Below are positions 6,578 to 62,584 of a stretch of 64,000 bases of DNA, one piece after another. This stretch comes from an uncultured Tissierellaceae bacterium (GTDB lineage Bacteria; Bacillota; Clostridia; Tissierellales; Tissierellaceae): assembly GCA_964527205.1 (NCBI GenBank), contig CAZGQG010000004.1, positions 7,023 through 71,022 on the forward strand. The letters run 5' to 3'. The position numbers and the translations under genes were made by a program. How positions within the stretch are numbered: position 1 is the stretch's first letter; each line of letters begins with the position of its first letter. The notes beneath the pieces were generated by a model. It was not told the origin of the DNA and ran no database searches. It saw only the letters and a list, made by a program, of their open reading frames with translations.

Positions 6578-6778
6578 AAAAAAACTTACCCCCAATATTT
6601 AAGGATAAGTCTAAAGACTTCAATCCTCCCTCCGAGATAATATATAGGCAGATATCCTGACTTATGGCTTTTCCTAATTCCAACACCTTCCCAGTTTCCC
6701 AGTGGCCTTTGTTGGTTTCGTACCATTTACAGTAGCGGGGGCTGTAGTGGCTTCTAACCACTTTCCCTTTTAATCCCT
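6578..6778 (-). promoter_or_regulatory. Cobalamin (B12) riboswitch with terminator expression platform
   Basis: The minus strand reads AAAGGGAAAGTGGTTAGAAGCCACTACAGCCCCCGCTACTGTAA...GGCCACTGGGAAACTGGGAAGGTG...AAGTCAGGATATCTGCC (B12 box), then the hairpin acttatcc/gggtaagt plus T7 at 6578-6612. Confidence 0.85.
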
Positions 6779-6854
6779 ATATTTTCATATAGGAAACCTA
6801 TAATCCTATTCAATTACTCCATAATAATATCATATCCAGAGAATATTTTCAATA

Positions 6855-7497: not shown

Positions 7498-7521
7498 GGT
7501 TATTTGATAAATGAATATGAT

Positions 7522-7675
7522 TTGTTAGGTAGAGGCTCCTATACAAACACAGGCTACTGCCCAGAAACGTCCAGAGACGCCAACGGGTATAACAGGAATT
7601 AACCGAAATAAGGTGTTCTTAAGGTAGCTAACAGAAATGTTTACGTTGTATAGTGCTAAAACTCCACGAAAAGAT
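7522..7675 (+). promoter_or_regulatory. M-box (ykoK leader) Mg2+ riboswitch
   Basis: GTTAGGTAGAGGCTCCTATACAAACACAGGCTACTGCCCAGAAACGTCCAGAGACGCCAACGGGTATAACAG...GTGCTAAAACTCCACGAAAAG matches the conserved M-box core. It lies upstream of a Mg2+ P-type ATPase. Confidence 0.85.
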
Positions 7676-7716
7676 CATAATGTGTAAGATTTTTTATACT
7701 TTATGTGGATATTTAG

Positions 7717-7784: not shown

Positions 7785-10427
7785 ATGAAAGATCTATTTA
7801 AAATAGATTATTTTGATCTAGCAAGCCGGCCTATAAAAGAAATCAAGGACTGGTTTGGTGTTAAGGAAGATGGATACAGTGATGAAGAAGCAGCTAGAGT
7901 CAGAGAAGAGTATGGGGATAACGAAATTGATTATGGTACAGAAAAACCCCTATGGAAGATTGTTGTTGAGGCCTACTTTACTCCCTTTACCCTAGTATTA
8001 TTTGCCCTGGCAATTGTTTCTTTCCTAACGGACTTTATATTTGTTCCAGTGGAAGAACAAGAGATCTTTGGACCAATTATTATTATCGTCCTAGTTCTCC
8101 TAAGTGGTACTATGACCTTGATTCAAACCCTAAGATCCAATCGTTCAGTTCAGGAATTGGAATCCATGGTAGAGGTAACATCAGCTATTAAGCGTGATGG
8201 TAAGTACAGTGAAATAAGAACAGAGGACATTGTACTTGGAGACTGGGTTAGACTAAGTGCGGGGGACATGATTCCAGCAGATATTAGACTTGTAGAAACA
8301 AAAGACTTATTTATCTCACAAACCTCCCTTACTGGAGAAAGTTATCCAGTGGAGAAAAGAGCAGAGATAGAAGTCAAAGAAGTTACAAATGAGACAGCCT
8401 ACGAAACCCTAGCCTTTACAGGCACTGAGGTAGTTAGTGGTAGTGCTCAGGGAATTGTAGTAAGAACTGGTAATGACACCTTATTTGGAGATATAGCAGA
8501 TGAACTAGCTCATGAGGAGCCAGAAACTAGTTTTGATATTGGAATTAAAAACACATCTTTATTATTAATTCGTTTTATGATTGTAATGGCCCTAATGGTT
8601 ATTTTAATCAATGGTTTGACCAAGGGAGACTGGCTACAAGCCCTAATCTTTGGAGTTTCCATAGCAGTTGGACTTACTCCGGAAATGCTTCCTATGATTG
8701 TTACAACCAACCTGGTCAAGGGTGCTAACGACATGGCCAAGGAAGGTACTATCGTTCGTAACCTACACGGAATCCAGAACTTTGGAGCTATTAATCTTTT
8801 AGTTACAGATAAGACAGGTACACTTACCCAGGATAATATTATCCTTCAGGCACATTTAAATATAGAAGGCTTTGAAAGTGAAAGAGTTCTTCGCCATGCC
8901 TACTTAAATAGTAAGTATCAAACAGGTCTTGGGAATCTAATGGATGAGGCGATTATAAAGGCTGCTGAGAATGAGCTAGATACAGAAGCTTTTAATTACA
9001 CCAAGGTAGATGAGGTTCCCTTTGACTTTGAGAGACGTCGCTTAAGTGTAGTAGTAGAAGATCCAACTGGAAAAACTCAATTAATTACAAAGGGTGCAGT
9101 GGAAGAAATGCTAGATGCCTGTTCCTTTGTTGATTATGATGGCAAGGTTCATGAACTTACAGATGAACGCCGTGAGTATGTTAGGGATCAAGTAGCAGAT
9201 CTTAATAGAAAGGGCCTCCGTGTTTTAGGGGTCGCCCAAAAAACTAATCCACCTCCAGTAGATGAGTTTTCAGTAAAAGATGAGACCAATATGGTCCTAA
9301 TAGGTTATCTTGCCTTCCTAGATCCTCCAAAGGAATCTACCAAGGAAGCTATAGAAGCCCTAAAGGAACATGCAGTTGATGTTAAGGTAATGACAGGAGA
9401 CACTGAATTAGTAACTATTGCAGTTGCTGAACAGGTTGGGCTTCCTACAGACAGGGTAATATCTGGAGAAAAACTCCTTGATAAGACAGATGATGAATTA
9501 AAGATAATTGTTGAAGAACATGATTTATTTGTTAAATTAAATCCAACTCAGAAGTCTAGATTGGTTGGTATCTTAAGAGGAAATGGTCATGTAGTTGGTT
9601 TCCTAGGGGATGGAATCAATGATTCACCTGCCCTTAGAGCATCAGATGTAGGTATATCAGTGGATAATGCAGTTGATATAGCCAAGGAGTCAGCAGACAT
9701 AATCCTCCTAGAAAAAGACCTAATGATTTTGGAACAAGGTATACTTTCAGGTAGAAAAATATTTGGTAATACAATGAAATACATTAAAGCAACTACAAGT
9801 TCAAACTTTGGTAATGTGTTTTCTGTATTACTTGCCAGTCTTTTCCTACCATTTTTACCTATGTTACCAATTCAATTATTGTTCTTAGGACTTATTTATG
9901 AAATCTCCTCCATGTCTATTCCATGGGACCATATGGATGAAGAATATCTATACCAACCAAAGAAATGGGAGGCAGAGGGAATTAGAAAGTTTATGGTTTG
10001 GTTTGGTCCAACAAGTTCCATCTTTGATATAACTACTTTCTTAATAAGTTTCTTCCTAATTGCACCAGCCGTTGCAGGGGGTCAATTTAATAGTCTAGGA
10101 CCAGAGGCCAAGGCCTTGTTCATAGCTGTATTCCAGTCTTCATGGTTTATAGTTTCCCTATGGACACAGACACTGGTACTTCACACCTTAAGAACACCTA
10201 AGATACCATTCTTAGAGAGTAATGCATCCTTTATAATGACTACCATTACAACAATTGGTATCCTTATAGGGTCAGTGGCTCCTTATACAAAATTAGGTGA
10301 TCTACTAGGACTAGCACCGCTTCCATCCAGTGCATGGTGGATGTTATTGGTAACAGTAATAGCCTATCTAGTACTGGTACAAATAGTTAAAAAGTTCTAT
10401 GTAAGAAGATATGGAGAATTATTATAG
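7785..10427 (+). CDS. mgtA: Magnesium-importing P-type ATPase
   Basis: 880 aa with the phosphorylation motif DKTGTLT, TGES, the GDGINDSPAL hinge and a 10-TM layout. It is preceded by the M-box. Confidence 0.9.
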   Translation: MKDLFKIDYFDLASRPIKEIKDWFGVKEDGYSDEEAARVREEYGDNEIDYGTEKPLWKIVVEAYFTPFTLVLFALAIVSFLTDFIFVPVEEQEIFGPIIIIVLVLLSGTMTLIQTLRSNRSVQELESMVEVTSAIKRDGKYSEIRTEDIVLGDWVRLSAGDMIPADIRLVETKDLFISQTSLTGESYPVEKRAEIEVKEVTNETAYETLAFTGTEVVSGSAQGIVVRTGNDTLFGDIADELAHEEPETSFDIGIKNTSLLLIRFMIVMALMVILINGLTKGDWLQALIFGVSIAVGLTPEMLPMIVTTNLVKGANDMAKEGTIVRNLHGIQNFGAINLLVTDKTGTLTQDNIILQAHLNIEGFESERVLRHAYLNSKYQTGLGNLMDEAIIKAAENELDTEAFNYTKVDEVPFDFERRRLSVVVEDPTGKTQLITKGAVEEMLDACSFVDYDGKVHELTDERREYVRDQVADLNRKGLRVLGVAQKTNPPPVDEFSVKDETNMVLIGYLAFLDPPKESTKEAIEALKEHAVDVKVMTGDTELVTIAVAEQVGLPTDRVISGEKLLDKTDDELKIIVEEHDLFVKLNPTQKSRLVGILRGNGHVVGFLGDGINDSPALRASDVGISVDNAVDIAKESADIILLEKDLMILEQGILSGRKIFGNTMKYIKATTSSNFGNVFSVLLASLFLPFLPMLPIQLLFLGLIYEISSMSIPWDHMDEEYLYQPKKWEAEGIRKFMVWFGPTSSIFDITTFLISFFLIAPAVAGGQFNSLGPEAKALFIAVFQSSWFIVSLWTQTLVLHTLRTPKIPFLESNASFIMTTITTIGILIGSVAPYTKLGDLLGLAPLPSSAWWMLLVTVIAYLVLVQIVKKFYVRRYGELL

Positions 10428-10532: not shown

Positions 10533-11978
10533 ATGTATTATTTTAAGAAAACAATAAAAATTATATTTATTCTATATCTTCTATACGCCATCTTTTTTTC
10601 AGTTTTCATCTTTGCCTATCACAAGCCTATTGATAAGAAGGATATAGAGGACAAGCTTTCTAAGCCTCTGGGAGACAGGGAGAGAAATGACCGGGTGGCC
10701 CTTATTGAGTCTCCTGAGAATGCCATTAACATTAGGCTAGATTTAATTGAAAACGCCCATTCCACCATAGACATATCCTACTATAAGTTAGTGGATGGAG
10801 AGGTGGCAGATGTCTTTTTAGGATCTGTCTTGGAGGCAGCGGACCGAGGAGTCCAGGTAAGGATACTATTAGATGGGGTTATTCAACTTAGTAATATGGG
10901 GGGCAAGGTAAATAAGATTTTTTTAGGCTTTGAAAACCACCCTAATATAGACCTAAAGCTCTATGAACCCTTTAATCCACTACTTCCAATATCTTGGAAT
11001 AACAGACTTCACGATAAGCTTATTTTAGTAGATGGTGAATTTGCCCTTACAGGAGGTAGGAACATTGAGGACCGCTTTTATTTAGAAGAAGTCTTTCAAG
11101 ATGGCTTTGTCAAGGATAGGGAGTTGCTTGTCTATAATGACAAGAAAAAAGATGGAGCCTCCACTGTAATAGAAGAAATAAATTCCTATTACAATGAACT
11201 TTGGAATCATTCCTATTCCAAGCCTAAGTATAACTATATGACTAAAAGAAGGATCTCCAAGGGAGAGACCTATCTTGCCCGTTTAAGATTAGAACATGAA
11301 ACTCTAAAAGAAGATTTTTTAGACAGGTATTTTCCTAGTATCAGGCCCATAGACTGGAGAGAAAAGACAATTCCTGCAGATAGGGTACGCTTTATATCAA
11401 ATCCTATAGGAAGAAGCAATCAAGACCCAAGGATATTAAAGGCAATCCTTCAGTTAAGCTCTCAGGTTGAAAATGATATGCTTGTACAAAGTCCCTATAT
11501 AGTACCTTCTAGGAGCATAAATGCAGCCTATAGGGAGTATGATATAGATCCAGAAAAGATAAGACTACTTACCAATTCCTGTGCCTCTAGTCCTAATCTA
11601 CCAGCCTTTGCTGGTTATAAGAGATATAGGGAGGACATGGTAGATCAGGGTCTTACTATCTATGAATATCAGGGGCCAGGATCCATACATGCCAAAACAG
11701 CTATTTTCGACAAGGATATAAGCCTAATTGGTACCTTTAATCTTGATCCAAGAAGTGCCTATCTAAGTACAGAATCAATGATGATAGTTGAAAGCAAGGA
11801 CTTTACCCATATCTTAAAGGAAACCATGCAGAAAAACCTCTTCTATAGCTTAGAAGTAGATGAGGATTATGACTATATTGAATTGGAAGGCCTGCCAGCC
11901 TATGATCTGGCCAGGGCTAAGAGAATATTTATTACTGTCCTATCAAAGATAACACCCCTATTTGAATATTTACTATAA
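10533..11978 (+). CDS. Phospholipase D / cardiolipin-synthase-like protein with an N-terminal membrane anchor
   Basis: 481 aa with two HKD motifs (HDKLILVDGEFALTGGRN and HAKTAIFDKDISLIGTFNLDPRS). Confidence 0.8.
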   Translation: MYYFKKTIKIIFILYLLYAIFFSVFIFAYHKPIDKKDIEDKLSKPLGDRERNDRVALIESPENAINIRLDLIENAHSTIDISYYKLVDGEVADVFLGSVLEAADRGVQVRILLDGVIQLSNMGGKVNKIFLGFENHPNIDLKLYEPFNPLLPISWNNRLHDKLILVDGEFALTGGRNIEDRFYLEEVFQDGFVKDRELLVYNDKKKDGASTVIEEINSYYNELWNHSYSKPKYNYMTKRRISKGETYLARLRLEHETLKEDFLDRYFPSIRPIDWREKTIPADRVRFISNPIGRSNQDPRILKAILQLSSQVENDMLVQSPYIVPSRSINAAYREYDIDPEKIRLLTNSCASSPNLPAFAGYKRYREDMVDQGLTIYEYQGPGSIHAKTAIFDKDISLIGTFNLDPRSAYLSTESMMIVESKDFTHILKETMQKNLFYSLEVDEDYDYIELEGLPAYDLARAKRIFITVLSKITPLFEYLL

Positions 11979-12015: not shown

Positions 12016-12600
12016 TTAGTATGTTTCACAAAATACTTCAAAATGTCCTTGTGGATGATCACAAGCTGGACATACATCTGGTGCTGACTTACCCTTATGT
12101 ATGTAACCACAGTTGTTACATTTCCATTCTACTACTTCATCTTTTTGGAATACTTCATTGTTTTCAATATTTGCCAATAGCTTTTTGTATCTTAGTTCAT
12201 GGCGCTCTTCTGCTTCTGCTATTTCTCTCCATACATATGCTATCTCTGGAAATCCTTCTTCATCAGCTACATCTGCAAATTTAGGATAAAGTACTTCCCA
12301 TTCTAATCTTTCACCCTCTGCTGCTGCTTTTAGGTTTGACTTAGTATCTGCCAATGCTACAGGATATTCTGCATTAATTTCAACAAATTCTCCTTCTAAA
12401 GTCTCACTTAGGAATTTCATAAATCTCTTTGCATGCTCTTTTTCATTTTCAGCTGTCTCTAAGAATATGTTTTGCATTTGAACATATCCTTCTTTTTTTG
12501 CCTGGGATGCATAGTAAGTATACCTAGTTCTTGCTTGGGATTCCCCAGCAAATGATATCATTAGGTTTTCTGCTGTTTTTGTTCCTTTTAAAGATTTCAT
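12016..12600 (-). CDS. rbr: Rubrerythrin
   Basis: Ferritin-like diiron motifs (E..ARTRY, EKEHAKRF, EGERLEW..., EERHELRY) plus a C-terminal rubredoxin CNNCG...CPACD. Start moved to the ATG at 12598-12600, which has GGAGG upstream; the track ORF begins 23 codons earlier. Confidence 0.9.
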   Translation of the reverse strand: MKSLKGTKTAENLMISFAGESQARTRYTYYASQAKKEGYVQMQNIFLETAENEKEHAKRFMKFLSETLEGEFVEINAEYPVALADTKSNLKAAAEGERLEWEVLYPKFADVADEEGFPEIAYVWREIAEAEERHELRYKKLLANIENNEVFQKDEVVEWKCNNCGYIHKGKSAPDVCPACDHPQGHFEVFCETY

Positions 12601-12764
12601 TCTATTACCTCCATTTTTTTGATATATTACTCTACTTTTATTATAGACCATCTTTAAGATTTTTCCCAATTTTCAGATTTTAACTAAGTATAATTGGCAT
12701 TTTCGGCTTATAGTCTTTTAGCTGACTATAAGCCTCTTTAATCTCTTAAATGATCATTAAAGCC

Positions 12765-29767: not shown

Positions 29768-30279
29768 TTATTTTTTATATAGATAATCTAAAATATCCTC
29801 CAACTTATAGCTTTCCTTTGATGTTGTATTAAGCATTAGTATGTCAGTATCTTCTGGTCTTATGGACTTGTCTCTTAAAGATTTAAATTTATCTATTGTA
29901 GTTTCTCTCATTTGAGATTCTTTGTTTTCCCTGGTTTTTATTCTTTTTTCTATATCTTCATAACTATCCACCCTGCACTCAATATACTTATAATCCGCCT
30001 CATATTTTTCAGCTAAGCTTAATCCCTTTGAAAGGGTTTCTTCTAGATAGCAAGAAGTGTCAATTATAACGCTAACCCCTTGCTTAAATAGTGCTCCGCA
30101 AGATCAAATACTATTGTATATGAAGTATCTGTAAGCAAAGGGTCTTTTATTCCCATCTTTATCATAGAGCTTTTAATTACATCCCTATCCACCACTATTG
30201 CATTAGTGCTCTTTCTTATTTCTTCTGCTATTGTTGATTTCCCGCTGCCAGGGAAACCTGCCATCTGTAATAAAAACAA
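29768..30279 (-). pseudogene. P-loop kinase-like (AAA_33-type) ATP-binding protein, frameshifted
   Basis: The N-terminal frame has GFPGSGKST and stops at 30064. The +2 frame continues ...KQGVSVIIDTSCYLEETLSKGLSLAEKYEADYKYIECRVDSYEDIEKRIK to 29768. A single-base indel near 30064-30100 would join them. Confidence 0.55.
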
Positions 30280-30527
30280 TCTTATCTACTTCCTCTCTTT
30301 GCTTTATTGATTTTATTAAATCTATTTTTCCATTCTCTAGTTTTTTTCAAATTCCTTACAAGTATTATATATTGTAGGGACAGGCTTTTCTACTCTTTTT
30401 CTAATATTGTTTGTCTTTTATCAAGAATATTATTTTTTTAAAACAAGTCCCTAAGTCTCTGCTGCTTAAGTAGACTACTAGTGGGGTAAATAGACCTTAG
30501 TAGGAAAAAATAGAGAGAGGTGGTTAA

Positions 30528-31871
30528 ATGAAAGTTCTTATTATAGGTGGAGTGGCTGGAGGCATGAGTGTTGCCTTTAAGGCCAAGCGTGAAAATCCAC
30601 AGTTAGACATTACTGTTTTAGAACAAGAAGATTATATATCCTTTGGTGCCTGAGGTTTGCCCTATTATATCGGTGATATATTTGATGATATTGATAAAAG
30701 CTTATTCATTAGGAATCTAGAGGACGCAAAGGAACAGGGAATTAATTTACTGCAAAGACATAGGGTTACGGAGGTTGACTTTGATAAAAAGAAAGCTTTA
30801 GCCCGAGATTTAGATAAGGATGAGGAAAAGACCTTTGAATATGATCAATTAGTCATAGCAACTGGAGCCACTGCCTTCATTCCGGATATTCCTGGTATAG
30901 ATTCTGACAATGTCTATTCTATTACCAAACCCTATATAGTAAAGGATCTTAAGAAAAACCTGGATAAATACACCAATATTGCTGTAGTTGGCGGAGGATT
31001 TATAGGTGTTGAAGTAGCGGAGCAGCTGGCTAAGTACAAGGGTTTAAATATAAATCTCTATCATTCCAGAGATCAGCTTTTAAACAAGGTCTATGACAAG
31101 AAGGCTGGAGAAAGAGCAGCTAAGGAGCTGGAAGATCTTGGTATTAATCTTCATTTTTCTGAAAGACTAGAGGATGTGGTCTACCAGGATGGAAAGGTCA
31201 AGGAAATCCTTACTAGCAACAGAAAAGACCCTGTGGACGCTCTTATTTTAGCTATAGGATTTAATCCTAATACCTCTATCTTTGATGATGAGAGACTGGA
31301 AAAATTAAAAAATGGAGCTATTGTAATTGATAAGTACGGCAGAACTTCAATTCCAGATGTATGGAGTGTTGGAGACTGCGCTACTGTTCCTCATAAGTTT
31401 TTAGATAATCCTTACATTCCTCTTGCAACCAGTGCCAATAAGATAGGTAGGCAGATAGGAATAAACCTATCTAGGGAAGAGAAGGATTTATTTGGAGCCT
31501 ATGAATCCATAGGGAGTAGTTCAGTTAAGATAGGAAGTTTAGAATTTGCTATTACTGGTCTTACAGAGGAGCAAGCTGAGGAGCTTGGCTATGATTATGG
31601 TATAGCAGAGTCTCAAATCTCCAATAAACCTCCTTATATGAACAATTCTAGTAAGATTGATTTTAGGCTTATTTATGAAAAGGAGACTTTTAAACTTCTA
31701 GGAGCTAGGGTTTTTGGAAAAAGAGATGCTGTCCTTAGACTTCTTCCTTTCACTACAGCCATACATGCAGGCATTACAACTAAGGATCTAGCATATTATG
31801 ACTATGCTTATTCACCACCCTTTGCCCTAACATGGGAAGCTGTAAATACTGCTTCATCTATTGCAAAATAA
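30528..31871 (+). CDS. CoA-disulfide reductase / NADH oxidase-peroxidase family flavoprotein with in-frame TGA (candidate selenocysteine) at the catalytic Cys position
   Basis: ATG 30528 gives MKVLIIGGVAGGMSVAFKAKRENPQLDITVLEQEDYISFGA-TGA(30651-30653)-GLPYYIGD... This is in frame with track ORF 30657..31871. The GxGxxG FAD motif lies upstream of the TGA, and the SF(G/A)xC(G/A)LPY active-site Cys aligns with the TGA. Confidence 0.7.
30651..30685 (+). promoter_or_regulatory. Candidate bacterial SECIS: UGA plus downstream hairpin
   Basis: Perfect 6-bp stem tatatc/gatata (30666-30680) with apical loop GGU, starting 12 nt after the UGA. Confidence 0.45.
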
Positions 31872-31885
31872 ATATATTTTATTTA

Positions 31886-31935
31886 AAAGCTTGTACTGGC
31901 CTATCTAGGCTATTACAGGCTTTCTTTTCTTTTCT
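31886..31935 (+). terminator. Terminator of the CoADR/Nox-like gene
   Basis: Long hairpin aaagcttgta...tacaggcttt with inner gccta/taggc pairing, followed by a T-rich tract. Confidence 0.6.
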
Positions 31936-53122: not shown

Positions 53123-53731
53123 TTACTTTGCTTTCTTATAAAGTTCTTCTGCTTTCTTCCAGTCTACTACATTCCACCATTTGTCTATATATTCTGCTCT
53201 CTTGTTTTTATATTTTAGATAATAAGCATGCTCCCATACGTCTATACCTAATACTACTTTCTTGCCATCTGAGATTGGACTATCCTGATTTGGAGTAGAA
53301 ACTATTTCCAATTTGTCATTGTCAAGTACTAACCAAGCCCATCCACTACCAAATTGTCCAGTTGCCGCTTTTTTGAAATCTTCTTTAAACTTATCAAAAC
53401 CTCCAAGATCTTTATCAATCTTTTCAGCTAATTCTCCTTCAGGTTTTCCACCACCATTTGGTGACATCATTTCCCAGAATAATAAGTGATTATAATATCC
53501 ACCACCGTTATTTCTTACAGCTGTTCTTATTGATTCTGGTAACTTATCTAGAGATTTCAATATTTCTTCAATTTCCATATTTTGGTACTCATCATGTCCT
53601 TCTAAAGCTTTATTTAAATTATCTGTATATCCTTGATGATGTTTAGAATGATGAGTTTCCATAGTTTCCTTATCAATATGGGGTTCTAAAGCATCATATG
53701 CATAATTTAATTCTGGTAATTTAAAAGTCAT
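53123..53731 (-). CDS. sodA: Fe/Mn superoxide dismutase
   Basis: 202 aa: [28 protein letters not shown]..., [15 protein letters not shown]. Confidence 0.9.
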
Positions 53732-57414: not shown

Positions 57415-58982
57415 CTATTCCATTTCTACATATGATATTTTGTTGTGTGTTACATTATGATGATCAAAGACATGAGTCCAACCATCATATTTTTCAGGCC
57501 TGTAAAGAGTATAGCCACTGGTATTGTAAAGAGTAAGCATAGGCATTTCTTCAGCTATTATCTCTTGTAGCTTAAATATAAGCTCTTTTCTCTCCTCTGG
57601 ATTTACAGCTGACAACTGCTCCCTGGATACTTGGTCAATTTCAGGATTCACATAGCCTGGTATTTGATTGAATTCAGAGTTGTATAGTTCCCTAAGTGTA
57701 TCAGGATCATTACCCCAACCTCCATTACCAGTTAGTGCCAGTTCATAATCAGAATTTTTTATAGCCCCATCCCTGGTTTTTGTATCTAGACTGGTTATAT
57801 TAAGCTTGATACCTATTTTTTCAAAGTTAATCTTTATAAGTTCTCCAATTCTAAGTTCTTCATTGGAATTTCCTATTAGTAAGGAAAATTCATATTCTTC
57901 TCCTCCTAGGAGCTCCCTTGCTTTTTCCAAATCAAAGTCATATTCCTTTACCCCTTCATTATAGAAGGAATGCTCTAAGGGCAAGTATCCTGGACTAGCT
58001 ATTTTACCAGCTCCCCTTCCTACCTTTTCTATTAATTCTTCCCTATCAATGCCATAGGCCATGGCCTGTCTAAGCTCCTTATCCTTAAGCTCTTCTCTAT
58101 TTTCCATATTAAAAAGGATCTTATAACCCCAAAATCCAGGATTTTCTATTAGCTTATAGCTGGGGTATCCTCATATCTAGACAATAAATCAGGATTAATA
58201 TCAGTAATATCTATATCTCCATTCTCAAAGGCCAGAATAGAATCACTTACAGGAATAAATCGAATTTTATCTGCTGCAGGCCTATAGCCCCAGTAATCTT
58301 CAAATACCTCAAATTCATAGGCTCCCTGCTCTTTCTTATAATCTACTAATCTATAGGGACCAGAGCCTATAACCGCTTCTGGACCATCAAATTTTATAGG
58401 ATCATCTACATCTTCCCAGATATGCTTAGGTATAATAGGTATCTTGCCAAAGCGTCCTAAAAGAGTTGCATCAGGAGCTTCTACCTGGATATGAATAGTA
58501 TGATCATCTATTAAGTTTATTTCTTCTATGTAATCCCTTTGGCTTCTGGCTAGGTCGTCCCTAACAGGTGGATGCTCCTTATAATAATCAAAGGAAAATC
58601 TTACATCCTCTGCTGTCATTTCTTCTCCATCCTGCCATTTTACCCCTTCTCTTATTTTAAAGATATAGGATTTTCCTTCTTCATCTATCTCCCAGCTTTC
58701 TGCTAAAAAAGGGATCAAGCCTTCTTCCCCTCTTTCTAAAAGGCTATCAAATATCAGTCTCATCTTATAATAACCAGGACCTCTAGTATAGTGAACAAAG
58801 GGACTAAGGTAACCCCAATCTCCACCTTGTAAATTTAATATAAGAGAATCTTCTACTATTTTATTGTCTTCCAAAACCAGATCCTTATCCTTTTTTAAAC
58901 TATCCCCTTCTTCACCCCTACAAGAAATTAAAAATATAACACTTATAAATATCATGCTAAGCTTTACCAATCTTTTTTTCAT
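57415..58982 (-). pseudogene. Family-5 (peptide/nickel) substrate-binding lipoprotein, split by a 1-nt frameshift
   Basis: ORFs 58149..58982 (lipobox LISC) and 57415..58107 are collinear halves of one SBP. Adding one G to the G4 run at 58162-58165 gives a continuous ...SRYEDTPSYKLIENPGFWGYKILFNMENRE... (522 aa). Confidence 0.6.
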
Positions 58983-59584: not shown

Positions 59585-59745
59585 GAAGGTTCTACTATAT
59601 ATCTACTCTAGGCAGGTCTCCTGACTTATGATATTTTCTATCAACACCTTCCCAGATAAAATCCAGTGGTTTCTGTTGACCCTAAATCACTTACAGTAGC
59701 GGGGGCTGTATAGGACTTTAACCTATTTCCCTTTTAATAAAACCT
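59585..59745 (-). promoter_or_regulatory. Cobalamin (B12) riboswitch, second copy
   Basis: The minus strand reads AAAAGGGAAATAGGTTAAAGTCCTATACAGCCCCCGCTACTGTAAG...AACCACTGGATTTTATCTGGGAAGGTG...AAGTCAGGAGACCTGCC, which is a near-consensus B12 box. Confidence 0.85.
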
Positions 59746-59878
59746 AGAATAGTCTTATTTAGTTATCATATGTATAATATCATATTGTTATATTTAATAC
59801 AATATAATCTATCTCTTATTTCTTTCAGGACAAGAATCCTAGCCTATGCTATAATGGAAGAAAATAGGAGGTGCTTTA

Positions 59879-61074: not shown

Positions 61075-61854
61075 TTATGGCTGCATGGCTCCAAACAGAA
61101 CCAACCAAGCCAGGGCTGATTTAGCCACTAGGCTTAGAATAATATAAACTCTTTCACCATAAAGATAATCCTTCCATTTCCCAACTTCCTTGTATTGTAG
61201 GATCATATTGATTGGGAAGGTGTTAAATGCTATAAAGTAAACAACAACTATAGCCCATACAAACCAAGGTACCTCTCCAAAATTACCTGTTGCAAACATG
61301 TACATTGCAATGGCAATCCAAGGGGCAATCCCTGCTATTGAACCCCATATAAAGGGACCCCAATTAACATCTTCTTTCTTACGCTGAGAATTCAATTGTT
61401 CCATAACTAATCCAAATAAGTTCATTGTAGCATTAACAAAGAAAATAAGGGTTAATGAAGCAATATCATAAATACCAAATAGGGTTGCAATTAGAACAAT
61501 CATAATTGATGAACTAAGAGCATATTCAAACCATCTGAATTTGTTGATACCAAGCCTTAAGTCTGCAAAATATTTGTCGCTCATAATATATACAATACCG
61601 TGGGCTAGGGCAGAAATAAGTAAAAATGAAGCCACCATAATTCCAAAGGGCAATTGGAACAATTCCTTACTTGCAGTAACCAGTCCCTGGACCTGAGGAT
61701 CATACTTCAAGAAATTTTGTGTAATCATAGGCTGGAATTCTGCAATCTTTTGAATTACACTAGTTGCCAGAAATATCATTGCTATACCCTGTATAAGGTG
61801 TAGAGTCCCCATAATCAAGTTAAATCTCTTCAGTTTTTCTAATCTTTCTTCCAT
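61075..61854 (-). CDS. Heliorhodopsin
   Basis: 259 aa with 7 TM helices. Near-identical blocks to my recollection of HeR 48C12: FRWFEYALSSSIMIVLIA (counterion Glu) and GERVYIILSLVAKSALAW (Schiff-base Lys245, codon 61120-61122). The conserved His residues in LHLIQ and LAHGIV are present. Confidence 0.9.
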   Translation of the reverse strand: MEERLEKLKRFNLIMGTLHLIQGIAMIFLATSVIQKIAEFQPMITQNFLKYDPQVQGLVTASKELFQLPFGIMVASFLLISALAHGIVYIMSDKYFADLRLGINKFRWFEYALSSSIMIVLIATLFGIYDIASLTLIFFVNATMNLFGLVMEQLNSQRKKEDVNWGPFIWGSIAGIAPWIAIAMYMFATGNFGEVPWFVWAIVVVYFIAFNTFPINMILQYKEVGKWKDYLYGERVYIILSLVAKSALAWLVLFGAMQP

Positions 61855-61919: not shown

Positions 61920-61950
61920 ATAAAAAGAAGAGCTATAATAAAGCTCCTCT
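61920..61950 (-). terminator. Possible terminator after the DsbA-like gene
   Basis: 8-bp stem agaggagc/gctcttct (one G-U pair) followed by TTTTTATTT on the minus strand. Confidence 0.4.
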
Positions 61951-62584
61951 AGAGTTGTTTCTCTTCTTCCATAATTCTGTGAAGCATCTCTTCTATCTTA
62001 TCTAAGGGTTGAGCCCCTCCTATTAAATATTTCCCCTCTACTAAAAGAGCAGGTACACTGGATATTCCGTAGGCTCTGGCTAGATCAAGCTCCCTGTTAA
62101 CTGCTTCTAGTGACTCAGGACTATTAAAGGCCTTCTCCCACTTTTCCAGGTCTATGCCTGTTTGTGAAACAATATCCTTTATAATCTCTGGATTTCCTAT
62201 GTTTTTATTATCCATAAATAATGCCTCTTGCAAAGCATCAAATACCTCCCAAGCCATATCATCCCCAGCAACTTCTTCCCCAGCCTTAACTGCACGTAAA
62301 GGAAGGATTGACATGGGAAATAAAAAGTCCTTTTCTTTCATTCCTTCAATATTAAACCTATTAAGATCATCATTTATATTTGCCTGTTCCCAATGACTTA
62401 AAATCTCCCCCTTTGCCCCTTCCCTACTTCCAAACATCTTGTCAAAGGCTTCTAGCTCTGGAACTAAGGCAAAGGATCTATGGATAATTTCAAGTTCAGG
62501 CATCCTTTCCTTAAGCTTTCTCATCCTATAGGACATAGGAAAGCAAAAGCTACATATTACATCATGAAAAAATTCTATTCTCAT
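61949..62584 (-). CDS. DsbA/FrnE-like thiol:disulfide oxidoreductase
   Basis: 211 aa with an N-terminal CSFC (CxxC) in FFHDVICSFCFP and the C-terminal GISSVPALLVEGKYLIGGAQ. Confidence 0.75.
   Translation of the reverse strand: MRIEFFHDVICSFCFPMSYRMRKLKERMPELEIIHRSFALVPELEAFDKMFGSREGAKGEILSHWEQANINDDLNRFNIEGMKEKDFLFPMSILPLRAVKAGEEVAGDDMAWEVFDALQEALFMDNKNIGNPEIIKDIVSQTGIDLEKWEKAFNSPESLEAVNRELDLARAYGISSVPALLVEGKYLIGGAQPLDKIEEMLHRIMEEEKQL

Follow-up and report, generated by a model that had tools for sequence, protein, structure and literature searches.

In this study, we analysed a stretch of 64,000 nucleotides (hereafter the window) from an uncultured Tissierellaceae bacterium (GenBank assembly GCA_964527205.1, contig CAZGQG010000004.1, positions 7,023 to 71,022 of the forward strand), and we propose with high confidence that positions 30528-31871 of its plus strand are a single gene encoding a 447-residue flavoprotein resembling CoA-disulfide reductase (CoADR), in which the UGA at codon 42 is decoded as selenocysteine (Sec). 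Comparative sequence evidence carries this proposal: the gene has an in-frame UGA where homologs have Cys, the UGA is kept in orthologs, and coding conservation extends over both of its flanks. The features of the locus are the following.

30517-30523, plus strand: Shine-Dalgarno-like GAGGTGG, 4 nt before the true ATG, from reading of the sequence
30528-30650, plus strand: coding sequence part 1, codons 1-41, with the flavin adenine dinucleotide (FAD) dinucleotide-binding motif GGVAGG (30546-30563), under purifying selection
30651-30653, plus strand: in-frame UGA, proposed Sec codon (residue 42), in the catalytic Cys42/43 column of NADH peroxidase (Npx), NADH oxidase (Nox) and CoADR
30654-31871, plus strand: coding sequence part 2, codons 43-447 and TAA, with the NAD(P)H-binding motif GGGFIG (30990-31007) and matches to Pyr_redox_2, Pyr_redox and Pyr_redox_dim
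30660-30662, plus strand: Pro45 codon, within the constrained context of the UGA, CCC in the TGA forms and variable in the Cys forms
30666-30680, plus strand: putative core of a bacterial selenocysteine insertion sequence (SECIS), stem UAUAUC/GAUAUA with a GGU triloop, from pairing and covariation
31886-31934, plus strand: intrinsic terminator, a 16-bp imperfect stem-loop (31886-31923) followed by a U-rich tract, from folding against shuffles

The region reads as one frame of 447 codons from the ATG at 30528 to the TAA at 31869-31871, and its sole in-frame TGA is codon 42, in the peptide context ...EDYISFGA-U-GLPYYIGD... (EDYISFGA-U-GLPYYIGDIFDNIDEK across the UGA in the predicted Sec form). 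A preliminary description of this DNA had argued that the mechanically called open reading frame (ORF; TTG 30657, 404 aa) lacks the FAD-binding motif, that extension upstream in frame supplies a normal N-terminus, and that gene callers would truncate such a gene. Our analysis agrees on each of these points: the 41 codons before the TGA read MKVLIIGGVAGG...EDYISFGA in the same frame and contain the dinucleotide-binding motif GGVAGG at codons 7-12, which the 404-aa ORF is without, and relatives are recorded as proteins of 404, 393, 389 or 374 aa. Purine-rich GGTG/GGAGG-like motifs precede the ATG in most orthologs too, and the stem-loop behind the TAA has a folding energy of -20.5 kcal/mol (z = -4.9), with as stable a fold in 0 of 200 shuffles. 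Since an intrinsic terminator follows the TAA, the gene is monocistronic, and, the TGA aside, it is a complete unit with Shine-Dalgarno sequence, start and terminator intact.

With Cys substituted at position 42 for domain and profile searches, the protein has the domains Pyr_redox_2, Pyr_redox and Pyr_redox_dim, and it can be aligned over its entire length to the solved structures of NADH oxidases, NADH peroxidase and CoA-disulfide reductases (E values of 1e-38 to 1e-65). Residue 42 falls on the catalytic Cys of these enzymes, FGAcGLPY standing against YGACGLPY in PDB 6ruz and FCSCGMQL in Npx (1nhr), as the preliminary description had expected when it assigned the gene to the CoADR/Nox family with UGA at the catalytic position. 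The Cys-type CoADRs (Staphylococcus aureus Cdr 1yqz, Bacillus anthracis 3cgb, Pyrococcus 3kd9/4fx9) and the Npx/Nox enzymes (Enterococcus faecalis 1nhr/1joa, Thermus thermophilus 6ruz) are all collinear with it over the full length, have the same domains, and share the redox position 42/43 in the context SF(G/A)xCG(L/M)PY; the window protein differs from them in the predicted replacement of Cys by Sec and in having Ala where Npx and Nox have His10. The three-domain architecture, the length of about 440-450 aa and the single redox residue near position 42 are those of the CoADR/Nox/Npx class. At the level of sequence comparison, the product is thus confirmed as a FAD/NAD(P)H-dependent pyridine-nucleotide-disulfide oxidoreductase of the single-cysteine CoADR/Nox/Npx class, nearest to CoA-disulfide reductase.

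The best NCBIfam model is NF007123/PRK09564, CoA-disulfide reductase, which the protein matches at 439.1 bits, below the curated equivalog cut-off of 458; its Cys-form sisters score 436-457, and the Cys outgroup P0051, a CoA-disulfide reductase in NCBI naming, scores 486. In comparison, the model for H2O-forming NADH oxidase (NF046103), whose cut-off is 600, gives only 264 bits. Aligned to 1nhr, the protein has Ala where Npx has its active-site His10; this and the NF046103 score place it outside the definition of an NADH peroxidase or an H2O-forming NADH oxidase. Two tyrosines of CoADR type, Y370 and Y428, are present. Ala10, the two tyrosines and the model scores favour a CoADR-like over a Nox/Npx-like chemistry. 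Because the clade scores just outside the curated CoADR equivalog, yet has this model as its best by far, we use the label CoADR-like.

Close homologs in the databases are of three kinds, namely proteins of 447 aa with W42, proteins of 447 aa with C42, and N-terminally truncated proteins of 404, 393, 389 or 374 aa. Fetching the DNA showed that the W42 entries are TGA translated by genetic code 4, with no match to the query under table 11. In the truncated entries the gene is likewise this one, broken off at the TGA, and the piece before it is called as a separate 41-aa ORF immediately upstream. Together with the window, the ortholog loci give 11 distinct sequences with TGA at the same codon, at 60-89% protein identity: the window itself, L004, L005/L010 (a Gudongella metagenome-assembled genome), L007, L008, L009, L012 (partial), L090 (the isolate genome of Senegalia massiliensis), L091, L092 and L093, the remainder including metagenomes. 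TGT or TGC occupies the codon in four close Cys-form orthologs (L087, L088, L089 and L094) and in all of the approximately 75 distant metagenomic homologs. We also observed W at the catalytic position in 16 cluster representatives (P0001, P0004-P0013, P0015-P0018, P0022), and the three for which the DNA was checked all proved to be TGA; the W stems from gene calling of short metagenomic contigs under genetic code 4. The artefact is systematic, and W at such a position might be used as an inexpensive marker of hidden selenoproteins.

The piece in front of the TGA carries the imprint of translation. Across codons 1-41, synonymous changes equal or outnumber nonsynonymous ones in seven of nine ortholog comparisons (15 to 5 in L093), the exceptions being L005 (7 synonymous, 8 nonsynonymous) and L008 (5 and 7), and this mostly synonymous change indicates that the piece is translated and under purifying selection. 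No other lesion occurs across the 447 codons of the TGA-form genes. In a neighbour-joining tree without bootstrap, one large clade unites the TGA forms; a few Cys forms fall within it, and others are its outgroups. The tree comprises 57 clusters (at least 50% identity), of which about 41 are TGA forms. Interconversion of Sec and Cys is the usual pattern in genuine selenoprotein families (PMC1794560), and the tree fits it. The Sec/Cys pairs that the preliminary description had suggested looking for were found within one clade. It had also held that TGC or TGT in close relatives, with no conserved hairpin downstream, would point to a pseudogene; the outcome was the opposite, with 11 TGA forms keeping both the TGA and the hairpin described below.

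A 15-nt hairpin, TATATC-GGT-GATATA, begins 12 nt after the TGA and has a 6-bp stem with a GGU loop from 19 nt. For comparison, the minimal SECIS of E. coli fdhF consists of a 17-nt upper stem-loop that follows the UGA at about 11 nt and carries G/U in its apical loop. The window hairpin is like it in lying within the coding sequence, 12 nt after the UGA, with a GGU apical loop, and unlike it in being shorter and AU-rich (6 bp, 3-nt loop), without a bulged U and without sequence similarity. Of the 1982 TGA trinucleotides in the window, only between 0.2% (strict) and 0.7% (loose) precede a comparable hairpin (a perfect stem of at least 6 bp, G in the loop, the same distance after TGA). In the alignment of the 11 TGA forms, all 66 pair cells are standard pairs; both sides have changed from U-A to C-G in L008 (TAT>TAC plus ATA>GTA) and from A-U to G-C in L092 (ATC>GTC plus GAT>GAC), and a one-sided change from U-A to U-G occurs in L091. 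The observed values of pairing and covariation were reached in 4 of 500 column shuffles, slid registers gave zero covariation, and RNAalifold, run unguided, gives the same helix. Taking a bacterial SECIS as a stem-loop directly downstream with its apical loop about 16-37 nt from the UGA, G in the loop and covariation, we find the loop in place, pairing in 11 of 11 forms and two compensatory pairs, low stability notwithstanding.

The comparison between TGA and Cys forms points in the same direction. Of the four close Cys forms, two have a broken stem and one a weakened stem; the final C of codon 48, which provides the closing base pair, is present in 11 of 11 TGA forms versus one of five Cys forms, and Pro45 is CCC in all ten full-length TGA-form coding sequences and in the partial L012, versus CCA, CCC or CCT in Cys forms. 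Synonymous variation has its whole-gene minimum around the UGA, with 15 of the 16 lowest sliding windows (sum at most 13) starting at codons 16-50. Low synonymous variation was also seen over about 12 codons upstream of the UGA (30615-30650, codons 30-41), a part that the downstream hairpin does not explain. Two other structures were considered and set aside. A longer stem-loop at +15 to +43, which appears in minimum free energy folds of single sequences, is not conserved and was not picked by RNAalifold. A pairing found by eye between UAUAUAUCC (30634-30642) and GGUGAUAUA (30672-30680), enclosing the UGA, was rejected as a functional element because its upstream strand would be inside the ribosome when the UGA is decoded and because, in most sequences, mismatches interrupt the pairing; it would be an alternative structure, incompatible with the downstream hairpin, and might add to the synonymous constraint upstream.

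Several observations weigh against Sec decoding. The hairpin alone has little stability (-1.3 kcal/mol), and shuffled sequences fold as well as the 66-nt region does (z = +1.0); the local fold not being significant, the case for Sec stands on conservation and covariation, not on stability. The perfect hairpin 12 nt after the UGA is thus as the preliminary description had given it, and its position is beyond chance; the correction to be added is that it is thermodynamically weak. In addition, the covariation consists of two independent double changes only, the conserved peptide Y-I-G-D-I accounts in part for the hairpin, and the hairpin is also kept in one Cys form, L089. Rfam searches returned no SECIS or other relevant family, either at the gathering threshold on the whole window or at E<=10 on 30560-30800. 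Pfam annotation of the window ORFs gave no selA, selB or selD, neither sel genes nor tRNA-Sec occur in about 8.5 kb past the right end of the window, and no second selenoprotein gene was found in the 64 kb among large genes or small CxxU/UxxC candidates. More generally, no tRNA gene lies in the window, tRNA-Sec is found neither there nor in the 19 fetched loci, and a SelD motif scan of all fetched loci gave no hit.

The preliminary description had itself named a nonsense mutation as the alternative, and a recent change from TGC or TGT to TGA may be imagined to have disabled a Cys-type CoADR gene in the window lineage. Decay is certainly found nearby: the AAA_33 kinase gene adjoining upstream (29768-30279, minus strand) is frameshifted from frame -3 to -2 near 30084 relative to the intact 165-aa ortholog at L004 670-1167, a real lesion rather than an assembly error since the independent Logan assemblies L001 and L002 have the same split, and a further gene of the window is split as well; the missing demonstration of Sec machinery in the window and the 8.5 kb beyond would also suit a dead gene. 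However, a TGA shared at one codon by 11 distinct sequences from different genera, down to 60% protein identity, excludes a one-off nonsense mutation, both flanks of it are under purifying selection with many synonymous changes, and no TGA form has a further lesion in 447 codons, the start, Shine-Dalgarno sequence and terminator being intact. We consider the probability of a pseudogene negligible. A split or truncated product, in which translation stops at the UGA and restarts at TTG 30657 to give a 41-aa and a 404-aa protein together or the 404-aa protein alone, would match what gene callers and the NCBI annotation give (the 404/393-aa form), and GGTGCCTGAGG upstream of the TTG could mimic a Shine-Dalgarno sequence. 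Such a 404-aa form would have neither the catalytic residue nor the beta-alpha-beta motif that binds FAD. The restart codon lacks conservation, in that the orthologs are called from various downstream Met codons (404, 393, 389 and 374 aa). The interruption coincides in every case with the catalytic Cys codon and is a TGA each time, never TAA or TAG. There is hardly any chance that this is the correct explanation.

Alternatively, the UGA may be read as something other than Sec, either by reassignment (Trp in code 4, Gly in code 25) or by SECIS-independent near-cognate read-through to Trp or Cys. The many database entries with W might be taken to say so, as might the rarity of TGA as a stop, which ends two of the 47 window ORFs of at least 200 aa, and, again, the lack of visible Sec machinery. 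The W entries, however, are gene-caller artefacts; both ORFs ending in TGA are Pfam-supported, one having a second stop directly after; and a single-TGA read-through scan of the 64 kb returned exactly one plausible gene, 30528-31871. Elsewhere in the window, TGA acts as an ordinary stop and interrupts no other gene, which excludes reassignment to code 4 or code 25. An enzyme with Trp or Gly in place of the catalytic Cys would be dead, which is at odds with the purifying selection on the clade, and plain read-through gives no role to a conserved, co-varying hairpin at the distance of a SECIS. A non-Sec reading is on these grounds very unlikely, and decoding of UGA42 as Sec is the explanation that we prefer.

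If the UGA is indeed decoded as Sec, the hairpin, at +13 to +27, would lie just beyond the mRNA entry channel when the UGA is at the ribosome, and would recruit SelB.GTP.Sec-tRNA(Sec) as in the E. coli fdhF paradigm, with the outcome that Sec is inserted in place of termination. Sec42, beside the flavin, could then alternate between the selenolate and an Se-S-CoA selenenylsulfide in a CoADR-like chemistry, or a selenenic acid (Se-OH) in a Nox/Npx-like one, and the oxidised form would be re-reduced by NAD(P)H via FAD. In other words, the sulfenic acid or Cys-S-S-CoA of the catalytic Cys would become Sec-SeOH or Sec-Se-S-CoA, and the gene would offer a natural system to ask what selenium gains a flavoprotein thiol reductase in oxygen-stressed anaerobes.

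The kind of selenoprotein proposed here is already known. 'NADH oxidase/CoA-disulfide reductase' (PRK09564, COG0446) has been a catalogued bacterial selenoprotein family since the mid-2000s; it was first reported from Geobacter metallireducens (prototype WP_011365774.1), and later examples, one sequence each, come from a worm symbiont and the GOS data set. Likeness to this family is by domain model, PRK09564 being the same as NF007123, the best match of the window protein, and extends to Sec, here predicted, in a FAD-dependent pyridine-nucleotide-disulfide oxidoreductase with many Cys homologs. While the catalogued examples that we found are single deltaproteobacterial or marine-metagenome sequences, a large Tissierellia/Clostridia clade is seen here, and the Cys-form outgroups in its tree suggest an independent Cys-to-Sec origin. 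What is new is this large Firmicutes/Tissierellia clade with comparative support and a defined SECIS candidate, which adds a well-supported series of Sec/Cys pairs to the CoADR/Nox family. All public records that we examined are wrong, being either truncated, as in the NCBI annotation of Senegalia massiliensis, or given W at the active site, and such mis-annotated entries contaminate family alignments and hide the selenoproteome of the Tissierellia clade. Since S. massiliensis is a cultured isolate, the Sec prediction is directly testable.

Indirect evidence on Sec decoding comes from relatives of the source organism. Clostridium ultunense, which belongs to the class Tissierellia, carries selA, selB and selD as well as glycine/betaine reductases that contain Sec (PMC5924567). 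In S. massiliensis QXXA01000011 (L090 11269-12024, plus strand), we observed a gene for an ArsM-like S-adenosylmethionine methyltransferase directly downstream of the TGA-form CoADR-like gene. It has an in-frame TGA of its own at 11851-11853, aligned to Cys224 of CmArsM (HGT-U-VGGA), and a 7-bp stem closed by a GGA triloop begins 13 nt behind this TGA, in the same geometry. The gene is recorded as a 194-aa protein plus a 47-aa ORF; judged from these features, it is probably a second mis-annotated selenoprotein. Sec-containing arsenite S-adenosylmethyltransferase (PRK11873) is a catalogued selenoprotein family, unrelated to the CoADR-like protein and not encoded in the window, and serves as indirect evidence that the clade decodes Sec. 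It is conceivable, and we put it forward only tentatively, that the TGA forms constitute a large, previously unannotated selenoprotein clade of anaerobes of Tissierellia type, with a probable Cys-to-Sec switch of its own, several reversions to Cys, and a minimal SECIS (an AU-rich stem of 6-7 bp and a GGN triloop 12-13 nt after the UGA) whose design is shared by the neighbouring Sec-ArsM-like gene. If this were the general SelB rule of the lineage, the element would be among the smallest natural SECIS elements and would provide a search pattern for hidden selenoproteins in low-GC Firmicutes.

The surroundings of the CoADR-like gene offer no functional clue, as the gene neighbourhood is not conserved among orthologs. 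Upstream, on the minus strand, lie the frameshifted AAA_33 kinase gene and genes for SdpI-like, VanZ, GreA, TPR and TetR proteins, a 760-aa old-yellow-enzyme/Pyr_redox_2 reductase and 2-hydroxyacyl-CoA dehydratase; downstream are genes for a Cu_amine_oxidN1-domain protein, a DUF2179 protein and an OpuA-type ABC transporter. The preliminary description had counted three disrupted neighbours, among which we recover the adjoining AAA_33 kinase gene and, 26 kb away, an SBP_bac_5 gene, the third not being confirmed. The SBP_bac_5 gene (57415-58982, minus strand), of a peptide/nickel-type ABC transporter, is split into pieces of 277 aa and 230 aa that cover positions 2-191 and 210-365 of the Pfam profile, with tandem stops and a frame change between them. 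A cobalamin riboswitch (59594-59762) and a TrmO_N-domain gene are found upstream of it. The riboswitches of the window are the following.

7514-7681, plus strand: M-box (Mg) riboswitch, ahead of a P-type ATPase gene (7785-10427)
6630-6816 and 59594-59762, minus strand: two cobalamin riboswitches, one of them ahead of a FecCD/Peripla_BP_2 ABC transporter

The window is rich in genes related to oxidative stress, which encode rubrerythrin (12016-12669), an Fe/Mn-type superoxide dismutase (53123-53731) and a DsbA-like protein (61949-62584). A minus-strand ORF of at least 531 aa (1 to about 1595) runs off the left end of the window, and from its sequence we take it to be catalase-like. A heliorhodopsin gene (61075-61854, minus strand; Pfam PF18761, 322 bits) is also present, in what is presumably an anaerobic organism of Tissierellia type; it is intact in the window and in L097, and split into pieces of 153 and 109 aa in L095 (10699-11477) and L096 (10698-11476), which come from the same population.

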